Virus record (IMG/VR): IMGVR_UViG_3300037455_000462
Location: 32,001 to 96,000 of that record
Direction: 5' to 3' (one strand)
DNA length: 64,000 nt
Source: a virus
Taxonomy: Duplodnaviria > Caudoviricetes
In this document: in pieces, positions 23,535 through 43,990 of the stretch
Numbering within the stretch: position 1 is the stretch's first letter
How the letters are laid out: the number at the start of each line of letters is the position of its first letter
The notes under the pieces: model-generated
What the model saw: the letters and a program-made list of their open reading frames with translations, nothing else
Database searches by the model: none
Told to the model about the DNA's origin: nothing
Made by a program: the position numbers and the translations under genes

Positions 23535-24482
23535 TTATTTATTCAGTTTTCTTATTAAAATTCTTTTATAAACGCCGTTTCCGTCAATGGTAAACTGACC
23601 TCCTTCAACGCCAAACCCACCATTTCCGTCCACATCGTGTTCGTGACCGACCAACTCAAACTGCCTACTGTTGTACTTATCCATAAAGGTAACGGGTACA
23701 CCCATAGTGCCTTCATAGTCCATAGGTATATCCTCAACCTTATCGACATTGATTGCGTTGTAATTGTCGTACACAGAATATATATACGGGTCGAATTTTT
23801 TGTTTGTTTCCAAGAATTCGGGTTCAAATCCTATGTCCATATTGGTGAACCATCTTATTCCCCTAACGCGGATTGTCCTGCCCGTTTCCGTTTCACCGCC
23901 GCACGCACCATCATAGGTTTCATACCCTTTCGGAACGTCAAACACACATCCCCCGCATCTTATACTGACACCAAGGCGTATGTCCCCGCGCTTGAAATAT
24001 TGGAAAAGTTCCTTTGTCGTGACGGCATTGATGTTGCCAAGCACGACAAATTCCTTGCCGTGTTTCATAACAAGCGAAACAAATTCTCTGAAAAGCGAGA
24101 ACGGGGGATTCGTCACCACAACGTCAGCATCCTTCAAAATCTTGACACATTCCATTGAACGGAAATCGCCGTCACCATCCAAATATATGACCGATATATT
24201 ATTGCCGTCATATTCAGCGCATACTGCGCGTTTTGAATCGGCAGTCAGAAGATTGCGTTCCACATAGCAGGAAGCAATAAGTTTCTTCAAGTCGAGTTCG
24301 GCGAAGCGGTCTTTAAAATAAGCAAAGAACTTACTGACACGATAGTCATCGCAGTTGCAATACACAACCTTGCCTCTGAAAAAATCGGCATAGTGAGCCA
24401 ATTCCTTCTCGATGTCGGAATACCGAGTGTAGAACTCGTCCTTTTTGTCCTTTCTCGCTATGTTAAGCCCGCTGTTGTCCAT
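23535..24482 (-). CDS. adenine DNA methyltransferase, M.EcoRI-like family
   Basis: DEFYT, YCNCD, GDFRS.EC, VVTNPPFSLFREF, MGVPVTF. Confidence 0.85.
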   Translation of the reverse strand: MDNSGLNIARKDKKDEFYTRYSDIEKELAHYADFFRGKVVYCNCDDYRVSKFFAYFKDRFAELDLKKLIASCYVERNLLTADSKRAVCAEYDGNNISVIYLDGDGDFRSMECVKILKDADVVVTNPPFSLFREFVSLVMKHGKEFVVLGNINAVTTKELFQYFKRGDIRLGVSIRCGGCVFDVPKGYETYDGACGGETETGRTIRVRGIRWFTNMDIGFEPEFLETNKKFDPYIYSVYDNYNAINVDKVEDIPMDYEGTMGVPVTFMDKYNSRQFELVGHEHDVDGNGGFGVEGGQFTIDGNGVYKRILIRKLNK

Positions 24483-25216
24483 CAGAAAAGTTTTTTGTTT
24501 GCTTCATCAATGCGTTTGCTCGCAATGTCAAAATATTCCTGCACCAATTCAAACCCTATGAAACTGCGGTTGGTATTCACGCAGGCTACGCCCGTAGTGC
24601 CGCTGCCCATACAGTTATCAAGAACGATACCGTTTTCGGGACAATACGAGCGTATTAGGAATTCCATAAGTTCAACGGGTTTCTGTGTTGGATGGATTTG
24701 GTCTTGTCTTCTCCACATCTGCGGAAAATCAAGAACGGTGGACGGATGCCTTGTTCCTTTGTTATCGGTCTGAACACCTTTTATTCCGTATTGCATATTA
24801 TTCACGTTATTTGGTGTATATTTTCTGCTGTACGGCTTACCTTCACCCATCTGTGGTTCATAATAAGACGCACTTTCACCAAATACAAGAATCATCTCGT
24901 GCTTTTTGAGTGGCATATATTTCGCAGTAAGCGGAGAGCCGCACTTCGACTTCTTCCACACCATATCGTATCGGAAAAGCCTCTCGTTTGACAACGCCAA
25001 CTTGAACGCAAAAAGACCCGCACCGAAAAGGACAATGTTGCCTTTCGGCTTGACTATGCGTTCATAGGCAGACCACATATCTTCAAACGGAATCACAACA
25101 TCCCATCGGTTAGCCGTTGTTCCGTATGGAAGGTCACACAGAACCAAATCGACACTGTTGTCCGCAATGCCTTTCATCAGTTCTATGCAGTCCCCGTGTT
25201 GCAGGTCAATCATCAA
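24482..25216 (-). CDS. N4/N6 DNA methyltransferase (beta class)
   Basis: DLPY, HPTQKP, LDNCMGSGTTG; ends KKLF. Confidence 0.9.
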   Translation of the reverse strand: MMIDLQHGDCIELMKGIADNSVDLVLCDLPYGTTANRWDVVIPFEDMWSAYERIVKPKGNIVLFGAGLFAFKLALSNERLFRYDMVWKKSKCGSPLTAKYMPLKKHEMILVFGESASYYEPQMGEGKPYSRKYTPNNVNNMQYGIKGVQTDNKGTRHPSTVLDFPQMWRRQDQIHPTQKPVELMEFLIRSYCPENGIVLDNCMGSGTTGVACVNTNRSFIGFELVQEYFDIASKRIDEANKKLF

Positions 25217-25932
25217 AACAGACCTCCTTTCGGCGTGCTAATTTCATCAACGACACGTTTGTTAGCCATATCGCAATATGCTTCGTCCAATTCAAACCCG
25301 ATATATCTCCTATTGCTTTTCAACGCGGCTATCGCGGTAGTGCCGCTGCCCATAAACGGGTCAAGCACAACTTCGTTTTCCAACGAACTGCACTCGATAA
25401 GCGTCTGCATAAGCCCAACGGGTTTCTGTGAATTGTGTATGTTAGAACCGTCCTCGTTTTTGTCCTTCGTGTTTTGGAACGAAAGAAGGTCTGATACACC
25501 GCAATCGTATATCGGTCGCCCGCTTCCCTTCCGCAAGAAGAATATATGCTCGACTTGACCCATATAGTATGTTCCGCATATCTTCGTCCTTTTGTCCCAC
25601 ACAAGCAATTTCACGAAATGGAATCCGCTGTTTTTCACAGAATCGAAGAAATGCGGGAGGTTCACGTTGTTGCACATAATGTAACAATGCGAACCGTCTT
25701 TGAGTACACGGTAGAATTCGGGCAGATAATCGTCAATGTCAATGTCATTGTTCTCGAATATCCTTCCTTTCATCGTTAGTTCGGATTCATAATGTCCGCC
25801 CATAGTCCCGTTATTGCCCTTTGGCGTAACCCTATATGGAGGGTCTGTAGCAATAAGGTCTATACTTCCATCGGGTATCTGCTTCATACCCTCAAGGCAG
25901 TCCATATTATATATCCGATTCAGTTCAAGCAT
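25213..25932 (-). CDS. N4/N6 DNA methyltransferase (beta class)
   Basis: TDPPY, QKP, LDPFMGSGTT; ends KGGLF. Confidence 0.9.
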   Translation of the reverse strand: MLELNRIYNMDCLEGMKQIPDGSIDLIATDPPYRVTPKGNNGTMGGHYESELTMKGRIFENNDIDIDDYLPEFYRVLKDGSHCYIMCNNVNLPHFFDSVKNSGFHFVKLLVWDKRTKICGTYYMGQVEHIFFLRKGSGRPIYDCGVSDLLSFQNTKDKNEDGSNIHNSQKPVGLMQTLIECSSLENEVVLDPFMGSGTTAIAALKSNRRYIGFELDEAYCDMANKRVVDEISTPKGGLF

Positions 25933-25939
25933 TTCTTAT

Positions 25940-25951
25940 ATATAATAAAAA
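25940..25951 (-). promoter_or_regulatory. phage promoter-like motif TTTTTATTATAT
   Basis: Exact copy about 8 nt upstream of the ATG at 25932 (near-leaderless transcript). Confidence 0.55.
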
Positions 25952-25960
25952 ATCAACAAA

Positions 25961-26764
25961 TTAAAATAGAGTTTTTGGCTTTTCTTCCAATCCGTCTATG
26001 TTGTCAAGCAGCACTTCGATTATATGATACTGTTGTAGTTTCTTCATAGCGATGCAGGATTTATACGATTTCCAATCAAAGGTCTTGAGCAGGTTCAGTA
26101 TCTCGTCCTTTTTGCGATGCGTGACCTTTATTTTGTATTCACCGCTGTAATGCTCGCCGTCATTCAGAATCTTCCCCATAGTGGCATCACCCCAACAACA
26201 CATACGGATATCGTAGTCGGTTATCGAATCATAACCCGCTTTGTCTTGGCGGTAAATTGTAACACCGTCCAATTGAAATTTGCGCTGCTTGTTGAGACCG
26301 TGCCTCGGTCGCCTATAGATGTTGAAACAGCACCAAAGGTTCTTGCCAGAATAGGATGCGTAACCCAAGTCCTCCGAATAAATCAAATCAAATTTATACA
26401 GCCGAACCGTATTGTTCAACTGACCTATCGGGAGAATAAAGGCGATATAGTCACATATATCCACAGCCTTGTTGAAGAATTTGATTGCAAGACCCATTTT
26501 ATCACCATAGGGCGGATTTCCTATCACAAGCCTGCCTTTTTTATAAGGTATATCCATTTCAAGGAAGTCACCGCACTCTATGCCGTCCGCTTCGGGTTCT
26601 ATGTCAATAGCCCTGCATTCCAATAAATTGGAGAAAGAACCGCTGCCCGCCGAAGGTTCTATTATGTCGGTGATGTTATCACGACCTATAACCTCGAATG
26701 TCTTGGCGACAAGTCTTTCAGCCAAATCTGTCGGCGTATAATATTTGTCCAACCTTATTTTCAT
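25961..26764 (-). CDS. amino-DNA methyltransferase (NPPY, gamma-like order)
   Basis: DKYYTP, IEPSAGSGSF, IGNPPYG; ends KTLF. Confidence 0.85.
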   Translation of the reverse strand: MKIRLDKYYTPTDLAERLVAKTFEVIGRDNITDIIEPSAGSGSFSNLLECRAIDIEPEADGIECGDFLEMDIPYKKGRLVIGNPPYGDKMGLAIKFFNKAVDICDYIAFILPIGQLNNTVRLYKFDLIYSEDLGYASYSGKNLWCCFNIYRRPRHGLNKQRKFQLDGVTIYRQDKAGYDSITDYDIRMCCWGDATMGKILNDGEHYSGEYKIKVTHRKKDEILNLLKTFDWKSYKSCIAMKKLQQYHIIEVLLDNIDGLEEKPKTLF

Positions 26765-27705
26765 TTCGGACGCACGGGTTGGTTGGCTAAATTATCTCTG
26801 TTTTTAAGAACCACAATGCACTCGCTCGGCAAAGCCTCGCACTCGCCAAAGTCGTTCCACAGTTTAACCATATCCTCTGTCGGCTCTTCGTACACCTCGT
26901 ATGCCGTTGTCGCGAATGTTTCGGAATCCGTCCACAGAACAATGTCGCCTTTGCCGATTATATTGCCGTTGATGTCGTATGCGTGGTCTTGCGTGAACGG
27001 CTCTGACGAAGCCGACCTAACGGCGAGATGCGTGTTGCGGTCAATCCAATACTTGTGGATTGTGTAACCGTATTGTTCCAAGAAACCGAATGTCTTTCTG
27101 TGGCGTTCCTCGGTCATACCAAATACGCCCACATCGAAGCACTCGAAAATGATTGGCGGGAAATTGTTACTCACTATGGTCTTTCTCGCGCCGCACAAAA
27201 CCTCAAACTCGTGATTCTCAACGTCAATCTTGATAAGACCGATGTTCACAAATCCGTAACTGTCAAGGGTTTTTGCATTGACTATGGGCGTGTATTCATC
27301 CACGTTAAGCGAGTCAAAACCGTTGAATCTGACTTCCTTTTCTTTGTTCGAAAGAAAATCCATATACACGTCAATGTGTTCGGATTTCTCCCACAGCAGA
27401 GCGTTGGCACACAGTGCATACGCGCTTTCCTTGTTAGGCTCGAATGCGTATGCGTGTACGAAATTGGTATCCCAACAATACTCGCCGAGGTTTGCGCCGA
27501 CATCTATGATGCACTTGCTGAAATCAAAGAAACCGTCCTCGTTTCTGTTTATCTTGTTTATGCCGTCAACCTCAAGACACAAAGGAACGGGGTAATGGTC
27601 GGGGTAGTTGCTTTTCAAGCAATTAACATCCCAATCGCGCATAATCACGGAGTTCTTCGGTATTCTGACTGGAAACTTGTTGTATTCCTTGTAATAAAGT
27701 TCCAT
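26761..27705 (-). CDS. FkbM-family methyltransferase with extra C-terminal domain
   Basis: IDVGANLG, AFEP, LIKIDVE..E. Confidence 0.8.
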   Translation of the reverse strand: MELYYKEYNKFPVRIPKNSVIMRDWDVNCLKSNYPDHYPVPLCLEVDGINKINRNEDGFFDFSKCIIDVGANLGEYCWDTNFVHAYAFEPNKESAYALCANALLWEKSEHIDVYMDFLSNKEKEVRFNGFDSLNVDEYTPIVNAKTLDSYGFVNIGLIKIDVENHEFEVLCGARKTIVSNNFPPIIFECFDVGVFGMTEERHRKTFGFLEQYGYTIHKYWIDRNTHLAVRSASSEPFTQDHAYDINGNIIGKGDIVLWTDSETFATTAYEVYEEPTEDMVKLWNDFGECEALPSECIVVLKNRDNLANQPVRPK

Positions 27706-27706
27706 A

Positions 27707-28570
27707 TTAAAATAATGTTTTGTTGTTTTCTATTTGATAATTGACGACAAGAACCTCGTCATCGGAATCGGACTTGTTTGTCTTATGATATGATGAATTA
27801 TTGTATTTGCTGCCGAGATGGAACGTGTTGTATCTGCCGCATATATCTTCAAGTATCGGGTTTCCGTATTTCAGATTGTTTGAAACGGCAAACCTCACAC
27901 CACGGCTGTCAAGGTCACGGAGAATGTCGGACAGCGTTTGCTCCTGCGATTCAGTCCAACCGTTCTTCTCGTTGTAAACAGCCACGCTTCCCAAATACGG
28001 TGGGTCGAAATACACGAAGTCACGCTCTCCGAAAACCGAATAGTCAATGCGGTCAAATGAAAGGTTCGTGCATTTCACATCCTTGCCGCTGAAACGGATT
28101 TTCATATCGTAGATGCCTGCCTTTTGGACATCGGAAAAATACGAGCGGTTCTCACCAAACGGCATATTGAATTTGCCGTTGCTTCCGAACCTGCCCTGCG
28201 CGTTGAATGCGTAGCAACAAAGAACATAGAGCGTAATCCAATCCCCGCCGTTTTTGTTGTAGTCGTCCCTCAACTTCAGATAGCCGTCCTTGTTGTATAT
28301 TGACAATCTGTATTTCTCTATCACATTGTATATCCCCGATATGATGTCATCAAAATCGGTCGTGGCAAAACCGTTGAACATAGAGAACACATAATCCGCA
28401 TATTCATTGTAAACATAAGAATCCGCATCGGCGTTCAGCAGCACAGTACCGCTGCCGCCGAACACATCGACAAACGTGCCGATTCGTTTCGGAAACAAAG
28501 GGACAATCTGCGGGAGCAACTTGAATTTGTTCCCCGTGTAGTTGATTGGCGATTTCAGATAAGCGCACAT
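27707..28570 (-). CDS. Dam-like (D12 class) adenine DNA methyltransferase
   Basis: YTGNK, DVFGGSG, FN.PFG, YFDPPY; ends KTLF. Confidence 0.9.
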   Translation of the reverse strand: MCAYLKSPINYTGNKFKLLPQIVPLFPKRIGTFVDVFGGSGTVLLNADADSYVYNEYADYVFSMFNGFATTDFDDIISGIYNVIEKYRLSIYNKDGYLKLRDDYNKNGGDWITLYVLCCYAFNAQGRFGSNGKFNMPFGENRSYFSDVQKAGIYDMKIRFSGKDVKCTNLSFDRIDYSVFGERDFVYFDPPYLGSVAVYNEKNGWTESQEQTLSDILRDLDSRGVRFAVSNNLKYGNPILEDICGRYNTFHLGSKYNNSSYHKTNKSDSDDEVLVVNYQIENNKTLF

Positions 28571-28572
28571 AA

Positions 28573-29001: not shown

Positions 29002-29002
29002 A

Positions 29003-30135: not shown

Positions 30136-31180
30136 TGATAAGTTTTTTTGCTATTTTCTTGATGTTCGATTTCACTTTGTCATCATATTCAAGCACATTG
30201 TCAACATACTTGTCAAGCATATCCTCTATGCTGACACACTCGCTCATACTGACTTTCGGCACATCTATAGTCAACGAACTTTTCTTCGGCACAAAATTGA
30301 TGTTGTAAATGTCGGAGTTGTTGTTGATGTAGCCGTATATCTTGTGAAAACTCAATTTCGAAAGAAGGTCGGAATCAACGCAAATATCAATATACTTGCG
30401 TTTGCAGAACTCCTTGAATTCGCGAAGCGGAAGGTCTTTCACTTCCTCATAGTCAACTCTCTTGAACTCTGCCGACACGCCGTTCCTATAAAACTCTTCA
30501 TCGCCGTTCTCTTTGACGCACATAACGCCTCTGTCGTTATCTCTGTCATTCTGCGACATCTGATATGGCGAACCCACATAGACTACGTTCTTGTAAGTCT
30601 GACGATGGTGTATGTGACCCGAATATATACGGCAGTCGAGTCGCGTGTCGTCCAAGTGGAGTTGGGATTCGGACTTGGTTCCAGAGGCGTTCATAGTGAC
30701 ACCGTTGAAATCGGCGTGGCAGACAACAATGTCGCAGTCATCCATACCGCAGAGCGTTTCGCTCAACAGACCGTTGTCGTTTATCCAAGGGACAAAGCCG
30801 ACAACCTTGCCATTTGGCATAGCGATGCTTTTCGGCTCTTTGATTACACTGATGTTCGGTATATGCTTCAAGCAATCAATGGAAGTGATGTCGTTGCTGT
30901 CTTTTTCATAGGCATCGTGGTTGCCGCAAAGCACATACACCTGCGAGAACATACGACCGAGTTTCTCGAAGATGTCCATAGTGAACGCCAACGTAGTAAG
31001 CCCGACCGTCTGTCTGTTGTCGAACACGTCCCCGCAATGTATGAGTATATCACCCTTGCGAGCCTTTTTCTCGAAAAGCGGGAACACGAATTTATCGAAG
31101 CATTCCCTAAAATGCTCCTCCCAAACTTTTGAATTGTTCTTTAATCCGAAATGCGTGTCGGAAATAAGCCAAATATTCAT
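30125..31180 (-). CDS. gp47: recombination endonuclease subunit (gp47/SbcD/Mre11-like)
   Basis: SDTHFG, GDVFD, GNHD, SGHIH, YVGSP. Confidence 0.9.
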   Translation of the reverse strand: MNIWLISDTHFGLKNNSKVWEEHFRECFDKFVFPLFEKKARKGDILIHCGDVFDNRQTVGLTTLAFTMDIFEKLGRMFSQVYVLCGNHDAYEKDSNDITSIDCLKHIPNISVIKEPKSIAMPNGKVVGFVPWINDNGLLSETLCGMDDCDIVVCHADFNGVTMNASGTKSESQLHLDDTRLDCRIYSGHIHHRQTYKNVVYVGSPYQMSQNDRDNDRGVMCVKENGDEEFYRNGVSAEFKRVDYEEVKDLPLREFKEFCKRKYIDICVDSDLLSKLSFHKIYGYINNNSDIYNINFVPKKSSLTIDVPKVSMSECVSIEDMLDKYVDNVLEYDDKVKSNIKKIAKKLINGQ

Positions 31181-31666
31181 TTAGAAAAGTTTTGACCACC
31201 CGTCATCGCAGACGAGCAGGTTGTTCAACAATGCTTTGTTTGTCGTGTATTTTGACAACTCCTCGTAGAGTTTCACTTTCGCGCCGTTTGGCAGGTCTTT
31301 GATTACGGAATCGTATTTGAGGTTGAAGTAGTCGCAATATATAAGCAATATATTACTCAACGTGGTTATGTTCTTAAACACCACATATATCCTCAAAAGG
31401 TTCATAGGTATGTCGGCGATTCCGAGTTTGCGGGAGTCAACATTGAATATGTCATTGCAGTCGCGAATGTCCATAGTCTTTATGTAATTCACAACGCTCT
31501 CCTCGATTTCATCGACAACGCCGCCATAGTCGCTGACGGCGAACACATCCATATCCTCCGCCATAACACGCTTCATCGAAGATATGCTGTCCGATTCGGC
31601 AAAGGAATCCTTGTCGTTGTTGTAGTAGATTCCGCGCAGTTTATTAACGTCAATTCTTTTTCCCAT
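31181..31666 (-). CDS. hypothetical protein, possible gp33-like late-transcription co-activator
   Basis: C-terminal helical pattern YCDYFNL.YDSVIK.LP...K.KL..E...NLL and terminal KLF. Confidence 0.35.
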   Translation of the reverse strand: MGKRIDVNKLRGIYYNNDKDSFAESDSISSMKRVMAEDMDVFAVSDYGGVVDEIEESVVNYIKTMDIRDCNDIFNVDSRKLGIADIPMNLLRIYVVFKNITTLSNILLIYCDYFNLKYDSVIKDLPNGAKVKLYEELSKYTTNKALLNNLLVCDDGWSKLF

Positions 31667-32348: not shown

Positions 32349-32598
32349 CCCACGGTGTGTTTAATATTGTTATGTTATCGTCCTTGACTTTTATGTTACC
32401 GCGATTGACAAGTTCCTGCATAAGTTCGGAGAGTATCTCATCATCCGCACTCACAACCTCGGACAACTTGCCGTACTTGAATTTCTGACCGCAATACACG
32501 ACCATATCATACAGCAGGTCATCCGAAGTCGGATAGGTGCTTTCATACTGATAAGTTCCCGTTATGTACTTGACGGGAACTTTGTTATAGTCAATCAT
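32329..32598 (-). CDS. hypothetical protein
   Basis: 89-aa ORF between the uvsX C-part and the helicase. Confidence 0.6.
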   Translation of the reverse strand: MIDYNKVPVKYITGTYQYESTYPTSDDLLYDMVVYCGQKFKYGKLSEVVSADDEILSELMQELVNRGNIKVKDDNITILNTPWDGESDD

Positions 32599-33278
32599 TA
32601 GTTTTCAAGTTGTTCTTTGATGAGGGTGTCGGTGTCGATGTCATCGCCGTCACCGTCCTCATCCAAAATGGTTTCAATTTCGTCATTGTTCTTGCTGTCG
32701 CTGTAAGCGAATATGCCTTTGATTACGTTTTCGTCAAGGCGTTTAATCGCATCCTCGTTCCAAACTTTAGCGGAACACACCTCCGACCATTTGAACGGTT
32801 CTAACCGATGGTCGGTGCAGATATACCTGCCGCTGTCTGACGGTTGGAAATAGACGTTCTCGTCAAGCGGGTGCTGACGGCATTTCTCCTTCTCGGCATC
32901 GCCGAGTTTGGCGTATTCCTTCGCCGTGATGAACTTTCCGCGACCGATACCGCAGGCATCCCAACTCATATACTCCTGCAAGCCGACAAATCGGTTCATA
33001 CCTTTTTGGAACGAGATATGGAACTTCACGACAGTCGGTACGCAGAAGCGGTTTTTCTGCGGCTTGGCTGTGACAATGATACCCGTTTGGTCTGTGCCTT
33101 CCTTCAGTTTGGCTTTCGTCATATTGAGAATGATGGACGCGCCGTACACAACACCAGTGTTATGATTGATGACACCATTATCTGTGATGTAATGCTGAAC
33201 TTCAGCAACAGTCAAATCATTAACTTTCATACAAGAGCCTTCTTGTACACTTTTTACCTTTAATGTCTTTAATTGCAT
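32598..33278 (-). CDS. uvsX: split-intein C-fragment (40 aa) fused to UvsX/RecA C-terminal part
   Basis: VNDLTV...HY..NGVINHN|TGVVYGAS...KNRF. Confidence 0.88.
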   Translation of the reverse strand: MQLKTLKVKSVQEGSCMKVNDLTVAEVQHYITDNGVINHNTGVVYGASIILNMTKAKLKEGTDQTGIIVTAKPQKNRFCVPTVVKFHISFQKGMNRFVGLQEYMSWDACGIGRGKFITAKEYAKLGDAEKEKCRQHPLDENVYFQPSDSGRYICTDHRLEPFKWSEVCSAKVWNEDAIKRLDENVIKGIFAYSDSKNNDEIETILDEDGDGDDIDTDTLIKEQLEN

Positions 33279-34230
33279 ATTCTACTGCTTTTTTAATTGA
33301 TTGTATGTTATTATTTTTTACATATAAATCGTTTACCCTTATTATTCCCAAAATATCATCGCGCACAGACATAATAACTTTATCTCTAATTTCGTCATAT
33401 TCCATATTATGCCAATATCCACCGTCATATTCCAATATGATAATACCATTATCGCATTTTATATACCCGTCACACACAATATACTGTTTATTATATACAT
33501 CACACAACATTGTATTTTGCACATTAATTCCAAAATGTAAATGTTTCACGTCAGATAAAAATGAAGACAAATTATCAAAAAACACATTCTCCTCCTTTGA
33601 AGAATAAGGTGTCCGCTCTCTCCAAAATTTATCTGGATTATCAATATATAACGCTTTTTTACTTTCAGACATTTTTTGAATATGTCTATAATACTCTTGT
33701 TCATCGGAATAACATTCTTTACAAGAACCGTTATATTTTCTAATAATCTTCTTGGATTCTTCTTCGCTAAAGCCAAGACCAATCCAATACGCAACAGACC
33801 AAACACTCATTTGGGATAACTCCTCGCGGCTATATTTTTGATTTTTAATTTCTGTAAACTTTTTTTGATAACCCGACACCATTTTAATAGCATCGTCTTC
33901 AGAATACCCACGAGATATATAGTATTCAGCACATCGTTTACTATTTCTACGCTGTTGATATAGAATACGCCTTTTTATATCCGAAACATCATCCCATCCC
34001 ATAGATTTCCAATAATCTATGGAAACAACACTTGAATTCTTACCATTACGCAATGACTTCATATATTTTGATATATTGTCATATACAGTCCTCATACGTT
34101 TTGTTTTTGATGTTTTGAATATATCATACAACAATTCTATGTGGTTTCTATTGTCTAAATTGACATTCGGGAATGAAACTGATATGTATTTTAAAAAATC
34201 GTTATAATTTTTGATGTCATCGTATTTCAT
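33220..34230 (-). CDS. free-standing homing endonuclease (Vsr/PD-(D/E)xK-like C-terminal domain)
   Basis: Three YW/YY..G[WYF]SE-type repeats; SKEE..F, CDGY, ILEYDGGYWH, D..RD; AT-rich; lies between the intein halves. Confidence 0.75.
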   Translation of the reverse strand: MKYDDIKNYNDFLKYISVSFPNVNLDNRNHIELLYDIFKTSKTKRMRTVYDNISKYMKSLRNGKNSSVVSIDYWKSMGWDDVSDIKRRILYQQRRNSKRCAEYYISRGYSEDDAIKMVSGYQKKFTEIKNQKYSREELSQMSVWSVAYWIGLGFSEEESKKIIRKYNGSCKECYSDEQEYYRHIQKMSESKKALYIDNPDKFWRERTPYSSKEENVFFDNLSSFLSDVKHLHFGINVQNTMLCDVYNKQYIVCDGYIKCDNGIIILEYDGGYWHNMEYDEIRDKVIMSVRDDILGIIRVNDLYVKNNNIQSIKKAVEYAIKDIKGKKCTRRLLYES

Positions 34231-34264
34231 TGTACTTTATTTTTAATATTTATAAAGTACAATG
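34228..34264 (-). promoter_or_regulatory. 13-bp hairpin sequestering the endonuclease start codon, with embedded late promoter TATAAATA (34247-34254)
   Basis: CATTGTACTTTAT-N11-ATAAAGTACAATG perfect inverted repeat. Confidence 0.75.
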
Positions 34265-34271
34265 CGGCGGA

Positions 34272-35252
34272 TTATTCATTAAAAATGAATTGTTTTACAA
34301 TATCGCCGTTAATCAAATCTCTTGCATATACCCAATTAGAATCATCATTAACATCGTCAGTTTCTCCTCCAACATAAAAACGATGGTCTTCCGAGCAAGT
34401 TATGACACTACCATCTTCAAACTCAATAGTATATGTGTTTTTTTCAAATTCCCAAGTTTTCAATATCTCCTTATTTCCGCATAATGTCATAACTTCATCA
34501 CCAACTCGTATATCCTCAATGTTTTTATACAAACCATCGGACATCAAAACTTTTGAACCAGGTATCAAACATCCACCGCTCTGTATGTCCTGCGAATACA
34601 AGTCAAGGGTTTTGTATGTGTGGTTGGTGAACACGAAAGTCCCGCCGATGATTCCGAGTTTGGACATCATAATTCTGAACACGGACTTCATCATCTTGGC
34701 GCGGCTCATATCAGCCTTGTCTGTGTAAGCCTTCGCATCGTCAATCTCTTTCTGCGAGGCAAGGTTGCCCGCGCTGTCAAGGGCTATGAAAAGTTTCGGA
34801 ATCTCGTTGCCGTCCGATTTCTCCTCGATGAGTTTGTCAAGGATGTTTGTCACATTGCTTCTGAACTCTTGGATTGTCTGCACGGGTTCGTAGCGCATCA
34901 TATCCAAGTCGATTCCGAAATTGGACGCAAGCGTGTCGTCAACGGCGTTCTCGCTGTCGTAGAATATGACGAAATATCCCATCTTCTGCGCCTCTCGGCA
35001 CATATTGAGCAGAAGGTAGGTTTTGCCGACACCCGACTCACCAGACAGACAAACACTTCTGTTGTTCGGAACGCCTTTCAAAAGGCTTCCGCTCATACAA
35101 GCGTTGAGAATGTAGTTGCCCGTATGGATATACTCGGTGATTTTTGAAGTGCCTCCGCCCTCGGACAGAAGTGCGCCGAATTTGGAGTTCTTGTTCATTT
35201 CCTTGTTGAGGTCGGCGATTGAAAACACGCCGCCTTTTGACTGTTTTGCCAT
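34272..35252 (-). CDS. uvsX: UvsX/RecA N-terminal part fused to split-intein N-fragment (99 aa)
   Basis: GESGVGKT, YDSE, LDSAG, TNHTY, QSGG|CLIPGSKV...CSEDHRF. Confidence 0.9.
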   Translation of the reverse strand: MAKQSKGGVFSIADLNKEMNKNSKFGALLSEGGGTSKITEYIHTGNYILNACMSGSLLKGVPNNRSVCLSGESGVGKTYLLLNMCREAQKMGYFVIFYDSENAVDDTLASNFGIDLDMMRYEPVQTIQEFRSNVTNILDKLIEEKSDGNEIPKLFIALDSAGNLASQKEIDDAKAYTDKADMSRAKMMKSVFRIMMSKLGIIGGTFVFTNHTYKTLDLYSQDIQSGGCLIPGSKVLMSDGLYKNIEDIRVGDEVMTLCGNKEILKTWEFEKNTYTIEFEDGSVITCSEDHRFYVGGETDDVNDDSNWVYARDLINGDIVKQFIFNE

Positions 35253-35636: not shown

Positions 35637-36491
35637 TCAAAACAAGCCTTTTCGTGAGCATCCCTTCAGATACAGACTTTCCTTTACGATAGTGTCGTTC
35701 CTGCTTCCGAAAATCCTTGTGTAGGAACTGTTGCCGCTCAACACGTACTCGTGTCTGTCATAAAGGTATCTCGGAACTTCGTATGTATTGTCGTCATCCC
35801 CGTTTATTCCGTTGAACGAAAGGGCGTATGGACATTTCAATTCAAACATCCAATTCCAAAGTTCCTCAAAGTCGATAGAACCGAAATACATCCCCTTTGT
35901 GTTCGCATACGGCGGGTCAAGGTAAACAAAGTCATTTGCATTCGGCTTTATGTCACTATACGTGCAATTTATGAATTCAACGTCATTCTCATTCAAAAGA
36001 GAATTCCACTCATACACAATGGTCGCGAGTTTATCGGGTTGTATGCCATCCCGTGTCGCGTGATATGTATTGTTGAAATTACCATCCTTGTTGAACCTCG
36101 GAACACCGTTTGTCGTTGTGCGCATAATGAACATAAAGTCAAGCGGGTCTTTTGTCTCGTTATAACGAGAACGAATACCAACGAAGTAATCTTTCTTTTC
36201 CTCTATACTCTTTTTCTCGTGAATACCGCGCCACAATTCGCGGTAATGCTCAATCACATCGTAAGGTCTGTCCTTTATCGCGTTCCACAACTCGATAAGG
36301 CTTCCGTTCAAATCGCTGCACACATAGCGACCAACCTTGATTTTGCTCGAAAGCAGCCTGCGCAAAACACTCGCACCGCCGCAAAACGGCTCGTAGTATG
36401 TTTCTATTTTCTTCGGGAAATATCCGATTATATATTCCGCTTGGCTGCGCTTGCTGCCGCTCCACTTGATTACGGGTTCAAACATTCTCAA
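35637..36491 (-). CDS. Dam-like (D12 class) adenine DNA methyltransferase
   Basis: KWSGSK, YEPFCGGAS, YLDPPY; ends KGLF. Confidence 0.9.
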   Translation of the reverse strand: MRMFEPVIKWSGSKRSQAEYIIGYFPKKIETYYEPFCGGASVLRRLLSSKIKVGRYVCSDLNGSLIELWNAIKDRPYDVIEHYRELWRGIHEKKSIEEKKDYFVGIRSRYNETKDPLDFMFIMRTTTNGVPRFNKDGNFNNTYHATRDGIQPDKLATIVYEWNSLLNENDVEFINCTYSDIKPNANDFVYLDPPYANTKGMYFGSIDFEELWNWMFELKCPYALSFNGINGDDDNTYEVPRYLYDRHEYVLSGNSSYTRIFGSRNDTIVKESLYLKGCSRKGLF

Positions 36492-36503
36492 ATTACCCTT
36501 TCT

Positions 36504-37055
36504 CTATTTTTCAACGTAGTTCAACTCAAACGATTCGTATGTCTTGAACATTCTGATTCCGTGGAAATCGTCCTGCTTCTTCAGCACGTTCTTCAACTCG
36601 GCGACACATTCCTCCGTTTTGGTATACTCTCGCCTTCTGACATAGTATTGCATATTTTCGATGCATTGGTTGCACTTGGCTACACAGTATTCCATCTCCT
36701 TCTTGAACCCGCCGATGAGGATGAACGGCTTGAACTCGTCCTTGCCGAAGTATTCGTCCGCTTCTTTTCCGTTTTTGAAATCGACATCACCGTTGTCGTC
36801 AAACACTGCGACATTCGTGTTCTTATAGGTGTTCATAAATTGCAGAACCGCGCTTCTGAACTTTCCGTTTTTGAGCAGGTTCACGAAATGGTAGTAATGG
36901 GTATCCTCGAATTCCTCGATTCCCTCGACCATTCCGTTGATGTAATTTTTGAACTTCAGCGCGATTGCAATGCGTTTCTGCGCTTCAAGTTTGTCGTGAT
37001 TGATTTCACGCCAACTTTTTTTCAACACATAAAAAATAAACTTGATTCTTTCCAT
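36504..37055 (-). CDS. hypothetical protein
   Basis: Start moved to MERIKF to avoid overlap. Confidence 0.6.
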   Translation of the reverse strand: MERIKFIFYVLKKSWREINHDKLEAQKRIAIALKFKNYINGMVEGIEEFEDTHYYHFVNLLKNGKFRSAVLQFMNTYKNTNVAVFDDNGDVDFKNGKEADEYFGKDEFKPFILIGGFKKEMEYCVAKCNQCIENMQYYVRRREYTKTEECVAELKNVLKKQDDFHGIRMFKTYESFELNYVEK

Positions 37056-37056
37056 A

Positions 37057-37677
37057 TCATTTCTTTTTGTAGATTTCCAAAAATTCATCAACACTGATAA
37101 CGTGCATAATGTTCTTTCTGTCCGCAACCATCTCATCATAAGTAAGTTGGGATTTTTCGGGGAACACCAAATCCTGCGGGTTGTCGTGGTATTCGATTAC
37201 ACAGCATCCGCAGTCGGTATCGACCGTGTTGAACTTGATGCCCTGCTTGTGGAGCATAGTTATCGCTTTCCACACGTCACCGTTCCAACCTCCGACCACT
37301 CTCGGCACAAGTTGAGCCTCGTAGTTGAGCGGTATGCAGTCGTGTACAACAATGCGACCGCCCTTGTTCAGATGTTTGAGGCTGTTGATAATGTCCCTGC
37401 CCGCGAATTCCTCCGTGTGCATACCGTCAACGAAAATGATGTCAAACTTCTGCTCGGTCTGCGCGAACAGTTCGTCAGAAGTCATACGCCAAGTGAGGCA
37501 AGGCGGAATCATATCCTCGTTCTTTATCAAGTCGTTGAACTCCGTGAACGGGTCAACACAATACTTTTCCTCACATTCAACGAACACAAAGCAGCGTCCG
37601 TCATCCAAGCCGATTTCGAGATAACTCTTGTAACCGTTTTGCTTGATAAGATAATTGATAATATCAGTATGTTTCAT
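37057..37677 (-). CDS. class I SAM-dependent methyltransferase (Methyltransf_24-like)
   Basis: YLEIG, VDP, FDIIFVDGMH, GGRIVVHD. Confidence 0.85.
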   Translation of the reverse strand: MKHTDIINYLIKQNGYKSYLEIGLDDGRCFVFVECEEKYCVDPFTEFNDLIKNEDMIPPCLTWRMTSDELFAQTEQKFDIIFVDGMHTEEFAGRDIINSLKHLNKGGRIVVHDCIPLNYEAQLVPRVVGGWNGDVWKAITMLHKQGIKFNTVDTDCGCCVIEYHDNPQDLVFPEKSQLTYDEMVADRKNIMHVISVDEFLEIYKKK

Positions 37678-38690: not shown

Positions 38691-38705
38691 AACACAACCG
38701 ATAAT

Positions 38706-39119
38706 ATGGAACACATAAAAGACTATAAGTCGTTTATCGGGGAAAAGATGAACATCGCCCCTATGACAAAGGACAGACTCGACAGAATAAGCAAGGGCGA
38801 GGGGCTGTTCTACGTGTACAAGGACACGGACGGCGAATCGGTCTATGTGAGCGATTTCCCGTTGAGATGGGACGGCATAGAGGGAATCGGAAAATATAGG
38901 GATTTCAACGATGCCGTGAAATCCATATCGAACTACGACACAGCGAACACGCTGTATTCCGCGAACATAGCGAATACAGTGATGGACACTTTCAAATACG
39001 ACACACTTGACAAGATATATGAAAACGGAATCCGACTGTTCGACCCGAAGAAAAAAGACTTCGAGTCAGCCGTCTTGCCGACAATAACCGATGTTGTGAG
39101 ATACATATTAAAACATTGA
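38706..39119 (+). CDS. tagged hypothetical protein (single copy of the domain triplicated in the next gene)
   Basis: FIGE|KMNIAPMTKDRL; LYS...MD.F.Y..L......FDP. Confidence 0.75.
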   Translation: MEHIKDYKSFIGEKMNIAPMTKDRLDRISKGEGLFYVYKDTDGESVYVSDFPLRWDGIEGIGKYRDFNDAVKSISNYDTANTLYSANIANTVMDTFKYDTLDKIYENGIRLFDPKKKDFESAVLPTITDVVRYILKH

Positions 39120-39125
39120 CGGAAT

Positions 39126-40490
39126 ATGCTGAATTACCAAGAATACATAAACGAAAAACTGAACATCGCGCCCGTCACAAAGGAAAGGCTTGACAAGATA
39201 ACGCACAGCATACGCGATGAGAAAAGCATCAAGATATACAAGAACAAATATACCGAACTGCTAATCAGCAGAGACAAAATAGACTCAACCGACTACAAAG
39301 AAATCGGTTCATTCGATACATTGAAAGACGCTATCCGCTTCAAGGGTGAAAACTACCAAAAGCAGACCGTACTGTATTCTATGTTCTTGGCTGTGGAATT
39401 GATGGATTTGTTCGGTTACAAAAAATTGGAAGAACTGTTCAGCGGTGGATTTGAACTTTTCGACCCGTCCTCGATATACAACAAAGGCGAATTGACAATA
39501 ATCATCGACACCACCGACTACTTCAATGCCATACAAGAATACAATAGGCTTGAGTTGTATAAAAAGATGCAGGAAGACGCTAAAAAAAGGATGCAGAAGA
39601 ATGAAAAGGAACAAATGATGAAAGACCTCTGCGGGAGGTTGTCATACAGCGTCACCGAAAAACTGAACATTTCCCCCGTTACAAAAGAAAGGCTGTCCAA
39701 ACTAACAGATAAATTACACAAAGACAACAAAATACGTTTGTATCAAAGCAAAGACAGAGAAATCATAGTCAGCGAAGAAATAATCGACTCAAGAAAATTC
39801 AGCGAGTTCAAGTCATTCAACAAAATAGAAGACGCGCTGACTTATTTGGATTCATACACAAAAGGCAAGACCACTCCCGTTGTGTATTCTATGCTAATGG
39901 CGGAAGAAATGAGGGACGCGCTCAATTACAAATCAATAAATGACTTGTTCGACAACGGATTTGTGATGTTTGACCCGCTGACAATAAACAACAATTATAT
40001 ATCCATTGTATGCACGGAGGAAGAATACATAAACGCTATGCTTTATTACACAATGAATAAACGCGACCTTAACGTCTCGGTAAAACAACCTATGGCAAAC
40101 GGTGGATTGTCGGAAAAACTGAACATAAAACCAATCACCAAAGACAGACTTGGACGATTGAAAGACAACCTCGGCATACACATCTACCAAGACCATTATG
40201 GCGAATGCCTCATAAGCAGGGAGGAAGTAAAAAACAGCAGATTCACAGAGGTGGCAAAGGTGAGCGATTTAAGCGATGTGCTAAATTGGATTGAGGAATA
40301 CGACCCTACCGCCGCCATATATTCAATACATTTGGTCAAAGACCTAATCGAAGAATTCGGATATTCATCTTTGGAAGACGCTTTTGAAAACTTTGCCGTT
40401 TCGTGTTTCGACCCGTCAGATGCGTCCGATGTGATAACGGTAATCGAAGATATGGAAAACTATGAACGTGCTATGAAGAACGCAAAATAA
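39126..40490 (+). CDS. three-module tagged protein (putative polyprotein)
   Basis: Tag at residues 10, 178 and 330, each followed by a homologous YS...Y..L...FDP domain. Confidence 0.8.
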   Translation: MLNYQEYINEKLNIAPVTKERLDKITHSIRDEKSIKIYKNKYTELLISRDKIDSTDYKEIGSFDTLKDAIRFKGENYQKQTVLYSMFLAVELMDLFGYKKLEELFSGGFELFDPSSIYNKGELTIIIDTTDYFNAIQEYNRLELYKKMQEDAKKRMQKNEKEQMMKDLCGRLSYSVTEKLNISPVTKERLSKLTDKLHKDNKIRLYQSKDREIIVSEEIIDSRKFSEFKSFNKIEDALTYLDSYTKGKTTPVVYSMLMAEEMRDALNYKSINDLFDNGFVMFDPLTINNNYISIVCTEEEYINAMLYYTMNKRDLNVSVKQPMANGGLSEKLNIKPITKDRLGRLKDNLGIHIYQDHYGECLISREEVKNSRFTEVAKVSDLSDVLNWIEEYDPTAAIYSIHLVKDLIEEFGYSSLEDAFENFAVSCFDPSDASDVITVIEDMENYERAMKNAK

Positions 40491-40495
40491 ACGGC

Positions 40496-41200
40496 TCATT
40501 TCAGACATATCCTCACATACAAATCATCCCGCACACCCTTATAGAAATATCCGAAACTCGGAATACGCAGATACATACCGTTGCGTAAACGCATAGGTGT
40601 CTTTATGTACCTTCCGACACCGTTCACCTTTATGTACATAATATCCCGTATATCGTTTTTTCTCATATAATAGTAATACACGAGAACGTATTTGCCATAA
40701 TGCTTCTTGAACGAAAAGTTTTTGTCGAGCGCGAATTTAACTGACAAAAACATATTGACGCGAAAACCGCCGACCTTTTTGCCCATACCTTCGTAGCACA
40801 CAACATCCCCTATGCAGATTTTCGGCGGAATGGTGACGGTCACGCTGTCGCCGTTGTCGTAGGTTATGGTTCTTATGCAGCCGTTAAAACCCTCTTCGAG
40901 CGTTATGACAACCTCGACACGGGTATCTTTTTCCGTCATCTTCGGTTCTTCCGACTTTTTGCGTTTCAATTCGGCACGCTCCTTGCGATGCTTGACACGA
41001 TATCCCTTGCAGATTCGGTTGTAGGCATCGACAATTTTCTTATACAGTTCCTCGTCACCGCCTTTGTCGGGGTGTTTGAACATCGACAGCACTCTGAACT
41101 GATGCTTGACTTCATTCAAGTCAGCATTGTCTTGTAATCCGAGAGTCTTGTAAGGGTTGTCGGAATCAACGAACACGCCGTTTATGTCACCGCCGCTCAT
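40496..41200 (-). CDS. dnaJ: DnaJ-domain co-chaperone (J domain plus DnaJ-C-like region)
   Basis: NPYKTLGL, HPDKGG, ITLEEGFNG. Confidence 0.85.
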   Translation of the reverse strand: MSGGDINGVFVDSDNPYKTLGLQDNADLNEVKHQFRVLSMFKHPDKGGDEELYKKIVDAYNRICKGYRVKHRKERAELKRKKSEEPKMTEKDTRVEVVITLEEGFNGCIRTITYDNGDSVTVTIPPKICIGDVVCYEGMGKKVGGFRVNMFLSVKFALDKNFSFKKHYGKYVLVYYYYMRKNDIRDIMYIKVNGVGRYIKTPMRLRNGMYLRIPSFGYFYKGVRDDLYVRICLK

Positions 41201-42051
41201 ATCGCACAAATATTTCTTTTCTTTTTGTACTGCATAAGGTTAAGCAACTCCATATACTTGTTGGTTATATCCCTATACAGTATCGCCGTCTTGGAAGGCT
41301 CTTTTCCGCAATACGATGTTGTCGAGACATTATCGCTGTTATAACCGACATAATAATAACCGATTGACGGTATGTATGTTTCCTCAAGCGAATGGGTTAT
41401 GAGGTCGTATGCCGAATCGTCCATTATCTCCGTGTCCTCGATAAAGGCATATCTCCTATCCCTAACAGTACCCTTTGAGAGAATCTTCGGGCAATCGCAG
41501 GAAAGGAACGGATGCGACCATCGGTAAACACCAAGAGGCTCTTGAAACGAAAAATACATATTCCCGAAATTCACACGTATAGTGTCGCCGCAGCGAACTC
41601 CCCCCATAAACTCACCCCTGCTTGAATATACATTGCCGTTGATGTAAAGGAAATTCGAATAGTTGGTCGAAATCATTTCCGTTGACGGGTACTGTATCTG
41701 CGCAAGCCGCATATAGCGCAGTATATTCTCCCCAATAAGGTCATCGTGGTCGAGAAAAAACACAAAGTCATCGTCTTGCCGACAATTTTTGAAACCGAGC
41801 ATTTTCATAGCCCCAGGGAAAGTGCGTTTCTCGGTCGCTCTGACAATCTTCATTTTCTGTAGTTTATGCCTAACACGCGAAAGCGATTCCACTTTGTCGA
41901 ACAGCGAAAGACATTCGTTCTCAAAGTAAGCGTCATCACTTGCATCGACAACAACAAACTCGAAATCGTCAAAGTCCTGGCAGAACACCGACATAAGCGT
42001 GGCGTACAGCAGGGGCATATTCCTATGGGTGGGCATCACTATCGAAATCAT
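41197..42051 (-). CDS. glycosyltransferase family 2 (GT-A)
   Basis: ISIVMPTH, SV..Q.F.DFE.VVVD.S, FLDHDD. Confidence 0.8.
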   Translation of the reverse strand: MISIVMPTHRNMPLLYATLMSVFCQDFDDFEFVVVDASDDAYFENECLSLFDKVESLSRVRHKLQKMKIVRATEKRTFPGAMKMLGFKNCRQDDDFVFFLDHDDLIGENILRYMRLAQIQYPSTEMISTNYSNFLYINGNVYSSRGEFMGGVRCGDTIRVNFGNMYFSFQEPLGVYRWSHPFLSCDCPKILSKGTVRDRRYAFIEDTEIMDDSAYDLITHSLEETYIPSIGYYYVGYNSDNVSTTSYCGKEPSKTAILYRDITNKYMELLNLMQYKKKRNICAI

Positions 42052-42052
42052 A

Positions 42053-43990
42053 TCAGAACAGTCTCTTCGGGCGTTTAACGGTTTTTTCTGTATAGACACG
42101 CTTCAAACCCTCTCCTTCAATGAGAGCCTTTTTGCGCAATGACGAATCACCGCCAAACCAAACATTGAGTTTCTCATCGCTTTTGTCGGTTATCTCGTAA
42201 TAGTACAGCCGTGGGTTCTTTATGATTTCCTCATACTCGGAATCCGTTAGGGCGGCAAGACCTTTCTTGTACGAAACGTCCCACTTGGAAGCATCGTTCT
42301 TTTTAAGCCAATCCTCCCACTCGTCATCGTAGTAGAAGTCTATGCGCTTACCCGTTTTCTTGTTTTTCGCTATAATCACGGGGGTTTCACAACGGGCGAT
42401 TCTGTGTTCCCTAAACAGTTCTGGCCACCATCTCTCAAACAGATTCACCAACAAACTCGCGCAACTTATGCCGTCCACATCGGCATCGCTGTAAATGTAT
42501 ATCTCTCCGTAGCGCAGGTTGTCCTCAACCAAGTTGCCGCTTTTGTCATAGACAAACGGGCTTTTGCCAAACTGCAAGCCGAGCGCACCAAGTATGCTCT
42601 TTATTTCCTCGTTGGCGATAGCCTTTGATTCGCTGACTTCCCTCACGTTCAATGATTTTCCTTTCAGCGGGAACGCGCCTTGCGTTTCGGGGTCGCGGTA
42701 TTTGCGGAAACCCGCCATAGGGCTGTCGCCCTCGCATAGCATAAGCGTGCATTTCCTGCGGTTCTTGCCTTTCGCCTCAACGAGTTTGTTTATCTTGACT
42801 TTCGCTATCTCCTTGTTGGCGTTGCGCACGGCGGCTCTGTCGTCCGCCTCCGCCTTTCTCGAAACCCAATCCATAATGGAGTTGGTGATTTCGGAATTGA
42901 ACACAGACTTCAAAGTCTTTTCCGTGACAGTGTGGCTTGTGCCGAAATTCCTCGCATCGGTTATGAGTTTCTCCTTTGTCTGCGAACTGTACGCTGGGTT
43001 CTCGACAGAGCAGGACACAAACACCCAAAGTTTGTTCTTGATGTCGCTCGGCTTCAAGTCAACCTTGTGGCGTTTCTTGATACGCTCGCGAAGATAACTC
43101 ACAACTTGGTCTGCTATATAGTTGACGTGCGTGCCGCCGTCCTTCGTTTCGGCAGAGTTTACAATCGAAATCTGCGTGAACGAGTCTGCGGGCGCGAAAC
43201 CCACTTCCCATCCTTTGCCTTTCTCGAATATCACGTTATCGCAGTACATACCGCAATATGCCTCGAATGACTTGAAAGCGAACAGTTTGCCGTTGAACTT
43301 GATTTTCAGATTCGGGTTGGTGGCGGCAGCGTCAATCACACGCTTCTGCATCATAAGCAGATGGTCTTCGTCAATGGATGAAATGCCAAATCTTTTCAAG
43401 TCGGGTTCAAATGTAATCTCCGTGTATTTCTTCTTGCTATCCTTGACTTTCGGCTTTGACTGTTTCGACATATTGTTCTCGAACACCTGCGCGAATTCCT
43501 TTTTGCCGTCAGCGGTCTTGACCGTGAACTTGGTGGAGAATATGTTTGTCAACGTAGCACCAAGCCCGTTTGTACCGACCCAATCCCTTTTTTCCGTGTC
43601 ATCGAAATTAGAGCCTGCGCGTAGTTTGGAAAATATGAGCGTTGGGACGTACATTTTCTCCGTCTTGTGCATCTCAACGGGAATACCTCCGTTGTCATAT
43701 ACTGTTATCGTGTTTTTCTTCGAGTCAACGGTTATGTTGATTGCGTTGAGTTTTCCGTTGCGCTTCGATTCGTCAACGGAGTTGCTGAATATCTCGTCAA
43801 AGAGTTTCAGCAGGGCGGGAACATAGCGGACGCAGCGTTCCGTGAACCTGCCGCTTTTCTCATCATACACCCATTCGGTAACGGGTTCGGTGAGAACGGT
43901 AGAACCGACATAGGTTCCAGGTCTCAAGAGGACGTGTTCGGTTTCCGTCAGACTCTTGTATTTTTCCTCAATGCTTTTCTGTTTTGCCAT
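42053..43990 (-). CDS. gp39: DNA topoisomerase II large subunit (gp39+gp60 fused; GyrB/ParE-like)
   Basis: HVLLRPGTYVGS, EIFSNSVD, G.NGLG, EGDS, PLKGK, DADVDG, KGL; ends KRLF. Confidence 0.93.
   Translation of the reverse strand: MAKQKSIEEKYKSLTETEHVLLRPGTYVGSTVLTEPVTEWVYDEKSGRFTERCVRYVPALLKLFDEIFSNSVDESKRNGKLNAINITVDSKKNTITVYDNGGIPVEMHKTEKMYVPTLIFSKLRAGSNFDDTEKRDWVGTNGLGATLTNIFSTKFTVKTADGKKEFAQVFENNMSKQSKPKVKDSKKKYTEITFEPDLKRFGISSIDEDHLLMMQKRVIDAAATNPNLKIKFNGKLFAFKSFEAYCGMYCDNVIFEKGKGWEVGFAPADSFTQISIVNSAETKDGGTHVNYIADQVVSYLRERIKKRHKVDLKPSDIKNKLWVFVSCSVENPAYSSQTKEKLITDARNFGTSHTVTEKTLKSVFNSEITNSIMDWVSRKAEADDRAAVRNANKEIAKVKINKLVEAKGKNRRKCTLMLCEGDSPMAGFRKYRDPETQGAFPLKGKSLNVREVSESKAIANEEIKSILGALGLQFGKSPFVYDKSGNLVEDNLRYGEIYIYSDADVDGISCASLLVNLFERWWPELFREHRIARCETPVIIAKNKKTGKRIDFYYDDEWEDWLKKNDASKWDVSYKKGLAALTDSEYEEIIKNPRLYYYEITDKSDEKLNVWFGGDSSLRKKALIEGEGLKRVYTEKTVKRPKRLF

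Follow-up and report, generated by a model that had tools for sequence, protein, structure and literature searches.

A lysine-containing Leu-Phe tail on DNA methyltransferases and replication enzymes of giant T4-like phages, a candidate docking peptide for a PCNA-fold sliding clamp

Flap endonucleases (FEN) are classical clients of sliding clamps, and in archaea and eukaryotes FEN1, the family-B DNA polymerase (PolB), ligase and RFC carry the PIP box, Qxx[LIM]xx[FY][FY]. The bacterial beta clamp is bound by Pol II, Pol IV, MutS, Hda and other proteins through the motif QL[S/D]LF (PMC11139829). B-family polymerases commonly bind clamps via a short C-terminal motif (PMC3201878), and in phage T4 the C-termini of gp43, gp33 and gp55 bind the clamp gp45 and are interchangeable, the clients named in that work being the polymerase, two transcription factors and the clamp loader, with DNA methyltransferases not among them (PMC2988020). 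A clamp-binding motif is known in DNMT1, a maintenance DNA methyltransferase which thereby methylates new DNA behind the fork (PMC9690074, citing Iida et al. 2002); in the full-text literature searched the DNMT1-PCNA pair of eukaryotes was the only case of clamp-coupled methylation found, and none was found for phage or bacterial methyltransferases. We have analyzed a window of 64,000 nucleotides of phage DNA (positions 32001-96000 of the linear IMG/VR viral contig IMGVR_UViG_3300037455_000462, 105,907 bp), in which several DNA methyltransferases and a topoisomerase end in the same dipeptide, Leu-Phe (LF), with a lysine close to it. With a CheckV completeness of 33%, the contig represents only part of a giant phage genome. 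The replication genes found on it are T4-like and comprise a split topoisomerase II, a RecA/UvsX with an intein, an Mre11-type phosphoesterase, a polymerase exonuclease subunit and a FEN/RNase H.

An earlier note on this DNA had listed eight proteins with such C-termini, and all eight ends are as it gave them, all on the minus strand (Table 1). Two further LF proteins, the FEN and a protein of 219 amino acids, are found on the same contig outside the window. Counted over the whole contig, LF forms the C-terminus in 10 of the 112 likely genes, where 0.41 would be expected on the basis of either composition or the frequency of LF dipeptides inside proteins (binomial P 1.8e-11), and the enrichment persists when only the seven unrelated families are counted (P 1.6e-7). 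At the nucleotide level the ends differ, the leucine being encoded by CTT, CTG, CTA, TTA or TTG, the phenylalanine by TTT or TTC and the stop being TAA or TGA, which indicates that selection acts on the protein and not on a DNA element. Indeed, a terminator, promoter or ribosome-binding site conserved across the stop codon was considered as a cause and rejected, as both the codons and the downstream DNA differ from gene to gene. The location of the tail within the proteins was also analyzed. The Pfam domains stop 9-48 residues before the C-terminus in two N6_N4 methyltransferases (24482, 29003), in a D12 methyltransferase (27707), which has an extension of about 48 residues past its domain, and in the topoisomerase, whose final domain ends at residue 622 of 645, leaving a tail of about 20 residues, and to which homologues from other phages align only up to about residue 625. 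The tail thus lies outside the catalytic domains, and it is disordered in the sole model made of a tailed protein, the AlphaFold2 model of the 161-amino-acid protein, which consists of a helical core with a disordered N-terminus and tail (predicted local distance difference test score, pLDDT, <50 for residues 155-161). In a 10-member alignment of this family, with identities down to 22%, L160 and F161 are among only ten invariant columns.

Five large related contigs were fetched whole from IMG/VR, found with the topoisomerase as query and later with a clamp loader, and they evidence the same trend. LF ends occur in 12 of 246 open reading frames (ORFs) of G001 (192 kb, CheckV 70%), 8 of 149 of G003 (122 kb, 38%), 24 of 537 of G004 (413 kb, 100%; P 5e-18), 17 of 496 of G005 (388 kb, 93%) and 9 of 426 of G006 (363 kb, 96%); LF ranks first among the C-terminal dipeptides of the window's contig, G001, G003, G004 and G005, and is enriched in G006. 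The nearest relative is the complete G004, whose topoisomerase, FEN and 161-amino-acid protein are 89.6%, 86.5% and 91% identical to those of the window's contig, the latter being colinear with only the last ~100 kb of G004. No close phage was found in GenBank, since megablast of a 20-kb region against the GenBank phages gave no match, and the best GenBank phage matches of the topoisomerase are to uncultured huge phages (47% identity) and Lak phages (36%). A consensus derived from 51 LF tails reads K-[KTSA]-L-F-COOH, with lysine at position -4 in 31 of them and lysine or arginine at -3 to -5 in 44, positions -5 to -10 being variable. Comparison of orthologues shows that the LF stays fixed as positions -3 to -6 drift, and that the tail is both gained and lost among them, a behavior which fits a short linear motif. 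An ORF of G004 (23765-24298) ending in FLFDFLF was considered as a T4-type tail and discarded, being of low complexity and probably spurious.

In order to define which proteins carry the tail, 75 LF-ending proteins from the six contigs were compared by Pfam with 75 random non-LF proteins of the same contigs. Domains of DNA or nucleotide enzymes were found in 49 of the LF proteins and in 2 of the controls, so that LF ends are enriched among DNA-acting proteins, as the earlier note had supposed. The LF set comprises 24 N6_N4 and 8 D12 methyltransferases, 4 topoisomerases, 4 FEN, 2 C5 methyltransferases, 2 resolvases and one each of PolB, a dUTPase/dCTP-deaminase-like protein, NT5C, Mom, HNH, radical SAM and GNAT. 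Among the controls are thymidylate synthase, DHFR, lysozyme, proteases, tail proteins and others; DNA methyltransferases, topoisomerases and FEN are all absent from them (Fisher P 9e-13 for methyltransferases). Clearly, the tail is real, is selected at the protein level and is restricted to DNA and nucleotide enzymes. On the window, five of the six proteins previously called DNA methyltransferases are so by Pfam (three N6_N4, two D12), and the sixth (25961) is methyltransferase-like by PHROGs only.

A check of the polymerase ends gave further information. The family-B polymerase is split, with the exonuclease subunit in the window and C-terminal pieces in the relatives, the piece of G005 starting with an intein C-fragment. 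The C-terminal piece of G004 ends in SKSALF and its G005 orthologue in FNKLF, i.e. the polymerase carries the tail too. In the distant relative G006 the polymerase is unsplit, has 981 residues and ends in EGLW, and six methyltransferases of the same genome end in Leu-Trp (LW), with 7 LW ends observed against 0.37 expected (P 1.3e-7). Polymerase and methyltransferase ends therefore change together.

The relatives encode a gp44-like clamp loader (phrog_168, E 3e-68), from which it follows that the lineage should have a clamp. Sequence profiles nevertheless gave nothing usable for it, whether PF02768, PF09116, PF02916, phrog_223 (the T4 gp45 family), TIGR00663 or a home-made gp45 hidden Markov model (HMM); in particular, no DnaN was found by PF02768 or TIGR00663 in the window's contig or its relatives, and no annotated clamp lies near the clamp loader of Sphingomonas phage PAU. 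Two weak matches were rejected, one to PF09116 in G006 (311 kb), which does not look clamp-like, and one to PF02916 in G003, which falls in the prohead protease. A candidate surfaced as two orthologous acidic proteins of 263-265 residues (pI 4.5-4.7), both of which appeared among the noise-level matches to the gp45 HMM. Only 18 homologues were found among 5.8 billion clustered proteins; the AlphaFold2 model built with these 18 has a pLDDT of 87.9 and a predicted template-modelling (TM) score of 0.85, and its top 50 Foldseek matches in the PDB are PCNA-type sliding clamps, one of them the 9-1-1 checkpoint clamp (probability 1.00, E ~1e-11, TM 0.55-0.66). The model thus points to the 263-293-residue protein of the relatives being a PCNA-fold sliding clamp, of the PCNA/gp45 superfamily, with two domains of similar beta-alpha-beta-beta-beta topology in each monomer. 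The family is acidic (pI 4.5-4.8), which suits a basic tail. Its HMM finds members in G003, G004, G005 and G006 and none on the window's fragment, and the G006 homologue (E 3.5e-8) lies inside a methyltransferase array, as part of a single run of minus-strand genes of which the polymerase gene is the first. Contrary to what had been proposed from the window, the clamp is not recognizably gp45-like by sequence and is not encoded on this contig.

Taken together, these results make it fairly probable that K-x-L-F-COOH is a docking peptide for the phage's own PCNA-fold sliding clamp, at a site shared with the family-B polymerase. The idea of the earlier note, that methylases and topoisomerase dock on the clamp, is therefore partly supported, by strong but circumstantial evidence: the polymerase tail, the shift from LF to LW, the loader together with a PCNA-fold clamp, and the FEN. 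What we infer from it is that the tails bind the clamp, in which pocket they do so and what is gained, i.e. fast protection from host restriction. In this view, a short linear peptide, exposed at the tip of a flexible extension, would insert in the partner-binding pocket of the clamp; the hook of the polymerase would have been copied onto topoisomerase II, the flap nuclease, DNA-modifying enzymes (N6A/N4C and Dam methyltransferases, in relatives also C5 methyltransferases and Mom) and others; the tailed enzymes would concentrate on clamps left on newly made DNA; and the nascent DNA would undergo modification, untangling and processing at the fork or immediately behind it.

In comparison with the described systems, the situation resembles that of T4/RB69 gp43, gp33 and gp55 in that a hydrophobic peptide of a few residues, placed behind a variable linker at the very C-terminus, is shared by a family-B polymerase (here that of the relatives) and unrelated proteins, and in that the lineage encodes a gp44-like loader and a predicted trimer-type clamp, the latter, unlike T4 gp45, undetected by the gp45 models of Pfam and PHROGs. 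The ending in Leu-Phe is shared with the bacterial motif, which frequently lies at the C-terminus and lets many clients use a single hydrophobic cleft, and a predicted PCNA-fold clamp with FEN and PolB as putative clients via their C-termini recalls the PIP-box systems. DNMT1 has an internal PIP box in one enzyme and serves epigenetic inheritance, whereas in these phages a single genome has a C-terminal dipeptide hook on as many as about a dozen methyltransferases, drawn from several classes, presumably for protection from restriction. What appears to be new is the consensus of this putative clamp-interaction peptide and the class of its clients.

A number of observations weigh against this reading. 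The tail matches the T4, bacterial and PIP consensus sequences only in its hydrophobic end: T4 tails are acidic-hydrophobic (SLDFLFG; the gp43 C-terminus reads EEKASLDFLFG) and those described here are basic and do not have the T4 composition; the conserved glutamine and first leucine of QL[S/D]LF are absent, with no preference for Q or L at -5/-4 in the 51 tails, where lysine dominates; and, relative to a PIP box, the tails have no glutamine, a single aromatic residue and a much shorter length. Some tailed proteins are not obvious clamp users (dUTPase-like, NT5C, GNAT, radical SAM). Conversely, the EcoRI-type DNA methyltransferase at the start of the array, which the earlier note missed, has no tail, nor do its orthologues in G001 and G004, and the replication proteins that are tail-free include the polymerase exonuclease subunit, the clamp loader, the primase and the A-type subunit of topoisomerase II, in which only the large subunit is tailed. 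The tail is lost in the G003 N6_N4 enzyme, in the FEN and topoisomerase of G006 and in the G003, G005 and G006 orthologues of the 219-residue protein. Finally, the window's contig has no polymerase C-terminus, clamp or clamp loader, so that the key links come from the relatives.

Of the other explanations, the one that survives best is that the tail docks on a different common hub, such as SSB, the helicase/primase, the host beta clamp or a phage replication-factory scaffold, which we consider unlikely. The data prove a shared receptor and not which one, and the tail has no feature of the T4, PIP or bacterial motifs apart from its hydrophobic end; furthermore, dUTPase-like and NT5C clients recall a complex of deoxynucleotide synthetase and replisome more than a clamp toolbelt, and N6_N4 homologues elsewhere end in QLTLF or Q..TLF, typical of host beta-clamp motifs. 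However, the polymerase tail of the relatives sits where T4-type and archaeal PolB carry their clamp hook, FEN is a clamp client in other systems, the G006 clamp gene is inside a methyltransferase-polymerase operon, and the lineage has its own clamp loader and no DnaN in the contigs searched. An improbable possibility is that the tail is a signal sorting proteins to a replication compartment or to the capsid. Giant phages do sort proteins, the tail is found only on DNA and nucleotide enzymes, and one client, the 219-residue protein, is perhaps a small terminase (an ESM Atlas lead only), but no compartment or import machinery was identified in this analysis and the position of the tail on the polymerase favours the clamp. 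Slightly less probable still is a C-terminal degron by which a Clp-type unfoldase would keep DNA-modifying enzymes short-lived. Tags recognized by Clp and Tsp classically end in non-polar residues, and the window encodes a ClpA/ClpB-like double AAA+ protein (Table 1); however, the tail is also present on the replicative polymerase, topoisomerase II and FEN, whose activity is required for as long as replication lasts, no ClpP-type peptidase is present among the genes scanned, and a degron leaves the co-variation with the polymerase end unexplained. These three explanations are weaker than docking on the phage clamp because the clamp-hook position in the polymerase and the linkage of clamp and methyltransferase genes are left without explanation. 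Lastly, an artefact of shared ancestry, with one methyltransferase duplicated, accounts for the N6_N4 family, whose paralogues align to their C-termini and have inherited the tail, so that the convergence claimed in the earlier note does not hold there, but is already refuted by the count of families, at least seven unrelated ones on the contig and more than 12 across the relatives, and by the gains and losses among orthologues: across families, to judge from the sequences, the tail must have been acquired repeatedly.

The features are collected in Table 1. The D12 gene at 35637 is the real gene, rather than the plus-strand ORF that overlaps it (35751-37097). For the 161-residue protein a gp33-like identity was considered and found unsupported, there being no Pfam or PHROG match, no fold match in the PDB (best E 0.7) and an Atlas score <0.85. 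Likewise, the small-terminase identity of the 219-residue protein remains a lead from the ESM Atlas (score 0.90; PF11053 on 21% of the cluster), Pfam and PHROGs being silent.

Table 1. Tailed and tail-free proteins and related features. Positions are those of the window unless a contig or locus handle is given; identities to the window's protein in brackets; aa, amino acids.
Feature	Position	Strand	C-terminus	Orthologue C-termini	Evidence
Topoisomerase II A-type subunit (gp52-like)	16477-17823	-	KKTIKN		PF00521 E 4e-89
95-aa protein with QLDLF at residues 27-31	20541-20828	-			sequence read
EcoRI-family DNA adenine methyltransferase	23535-24482	-	KLNK		PF13651 E 5e-102
N6/N4 (beta-class) DNA methyltransferase, 244 aa	24482-25216	-	NKKLF	GKKLF in G001 (82%)	PF01555 E 2.6e-31, domain 22-233
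N6/N4 DNA methyltransferase, 239 aa	25213-25932	-	KGGLF	ERKLF in G004 (70%)	PF01555 E 5.7e-35
Methyltransferase-like protein, 267 aa	25961-26764	-	PKTLF	TKSLF in G001 (71%)	no Pfam match; phrog_5172 E 1e-29, phrog_799 'DNA methyltransferase' E 5e-14
FkbM-type (non-DNA) methyltransferase, within array	26761-27705	-	VRPK		PF05050 E 2.3e-10
D12/Dam-class N6-adenine DNA methyltransferase, 287 aa	27707-28570	-	NKTLF	KKSLF in G004 (70%)	PF02086 E 2e-31, domain 11-239
N6/N4 DNA methyltransferase, 242 aa	29003-29731	-	NSKLF		PF01555 E 1.5e-49, domain 20-232
161-aa protein	31181-31666	-	WSKLF		no Pfam or PHROGs match
D12/Dam-class DNA methyltransferase, 284 aa, TTG start	35637-36491	-	RKGLF	KKTLF in G001, KRCLF in G004 (67-69%)	PF02086 E 3.3e-33
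Topoisomerase II large subunit (GyrB-like, T4 gp39-type), 645 aa	42053-43990	-	PKRLF	VKSLF, TASLF, PKELF	PF00204, PF01751, PF16898, PF02518
ClpA/ClpB-like double AAA+ protein	45707-47701	-			PF07724 (AAA_2) E 1e-57, ClpB_D2-small; PHROGs 'ATP-dependent protease'
Family-B polymerase, exonuclease subunit	50497-51255	+			
5'-3' exonuclease/FEN, 378 aa	63823-64000 (start), leaves window, ends contig 96959; L003:1823-2959	+	KKTLF	NKALF (G004), PNTLF (G003), NGKLF (G005)	PF02739 E 6e-19
219-aa protein	L001:8747-9406	-	EPKLF		no Pfam or PHROGs match
Family-B polymerase, C-terminal piece	G004 286876-288198		SKSALF		PF00136
Family-B polymerase, C-terminal piece	G005 272920-274395		FNKLF		
Clamp-family gene	L044:3606-4397 (G004)				family HMM
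Clamp-family gene	L020:9057-9854 (G003)				family HMM
Clamp-family gene	G005 30614-31450				family HMM
Clamp-family gene	G006 131692-132573				family HMM

With respect to the proteins that do not carry the tail, the earlier note had stated that non-DNA methyltransferases are free of it, which holds for the FkbM-type enzyme within the array; the 'Methyltransf_24' gene that it also named could not be confirmed. It had further assigned a canonical QLDLF to the 95-residue protein. The motif is present and is the sole canonical match to the bacterial beta-clamp pentapeptide, but it is internal and not C-terminal, and belongs to a different class, of the host beta-clamp type. It is kept in the G004 and G001 orthologues (52-78% identical), in which the residues directly after it vary, and the protein may thus be a binder of the host clamp. 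A fusion of DHFR and thymidylate synthase (525 residues, 18393-19970, minus strand) has no LF end and has FDLF twelve residues before its C-terminus.

Some other observations were made in the course of this work. In G005, three neighboring genes (299673-302664) end in LF, coding for a C5-methyltransferase-like protein (KEKRLF), a protein of 242 residues (FDRLF) and a radical-SAM protein (NSKKLF), and may be a DNA hypermodification cassette. The RecA/UvsX-like gene of the window (32598-35252, minus strand) is interrupted: 34272-35252 corresponds to the N-terminal part of RecA with a Hint/intein N-fragment, 33220-34230 is a free-standing ORF of 336 residues, and 32598-33278 begins with an intein-splicing C-fragment. 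The gene of the 219-residue protein adjoins one of the IS605 OrfB/TnpB type (L001:9764-11071, minus strand; OrfB_IS605, Cas12f1-like TNB, HTH). In G003 (91105-98000) and elsewhere (L021), many unrelated proteins share near-identical N-terminal leaders of ~25 residues (e.g. M-K/R-I-L/F-..-F-V-.-E-R-.-K), seen as repeated short tblastn matches.

The tail is also found beyond these contigs. Among the best 150 representatives of 50%-identity clusters matching the 244-residue N6_N4 enzyme, taken from a library of 1.8 billion proteins, 10 have LF as their C-terminus, where about 0.6 would be expected (P 7e-10), and in about 10 others LF falls among the final eight residues, in four cases as QLTLF or QQTLF/AQTLF. 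Hydrophobic ends of the clamp type may thus be widespread on phage methyltransferases, and C-terminal LF together with near-terminal QLTLF or Q..TLF on these homologues hints that clamp-tethered methylation is common among phages. A broader proposition, for which we see an even chance, is that a clade of uncultured giant T4-like phages, probably of gut or rumen, uses its clamp as a toolbelt for at least a dozen DNA-modifying enzymes per genome, by means of a K-x-L-[F/W]-COOH peptide copied from the polymerase hook and co-evolving with a cryptic PCNA-fold clamp, with strictly co-replicative modification as an anti-restriction strategy.

Binding of the tails to the clamp, if real, would couple the methylation of phage DNA and its related modifications to the replication fork, and would account for the way in which a phage endowed with numerous orphan methyltransferases shields each copy of its genome before host restriction cuts. 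The clients of clamps would then extend to methyltransferases of prokaryotic viruses, Mom-type enzymes, topoisomerase II and a resolvase, reached through a very short and portable clamp-targeting tag, and the statistics of C-terminal dipeptides could reveal replisome clients, as well as clamps that sequence profiles miss. Such a system would be a viral counterpart of DNMT1-PCNA.

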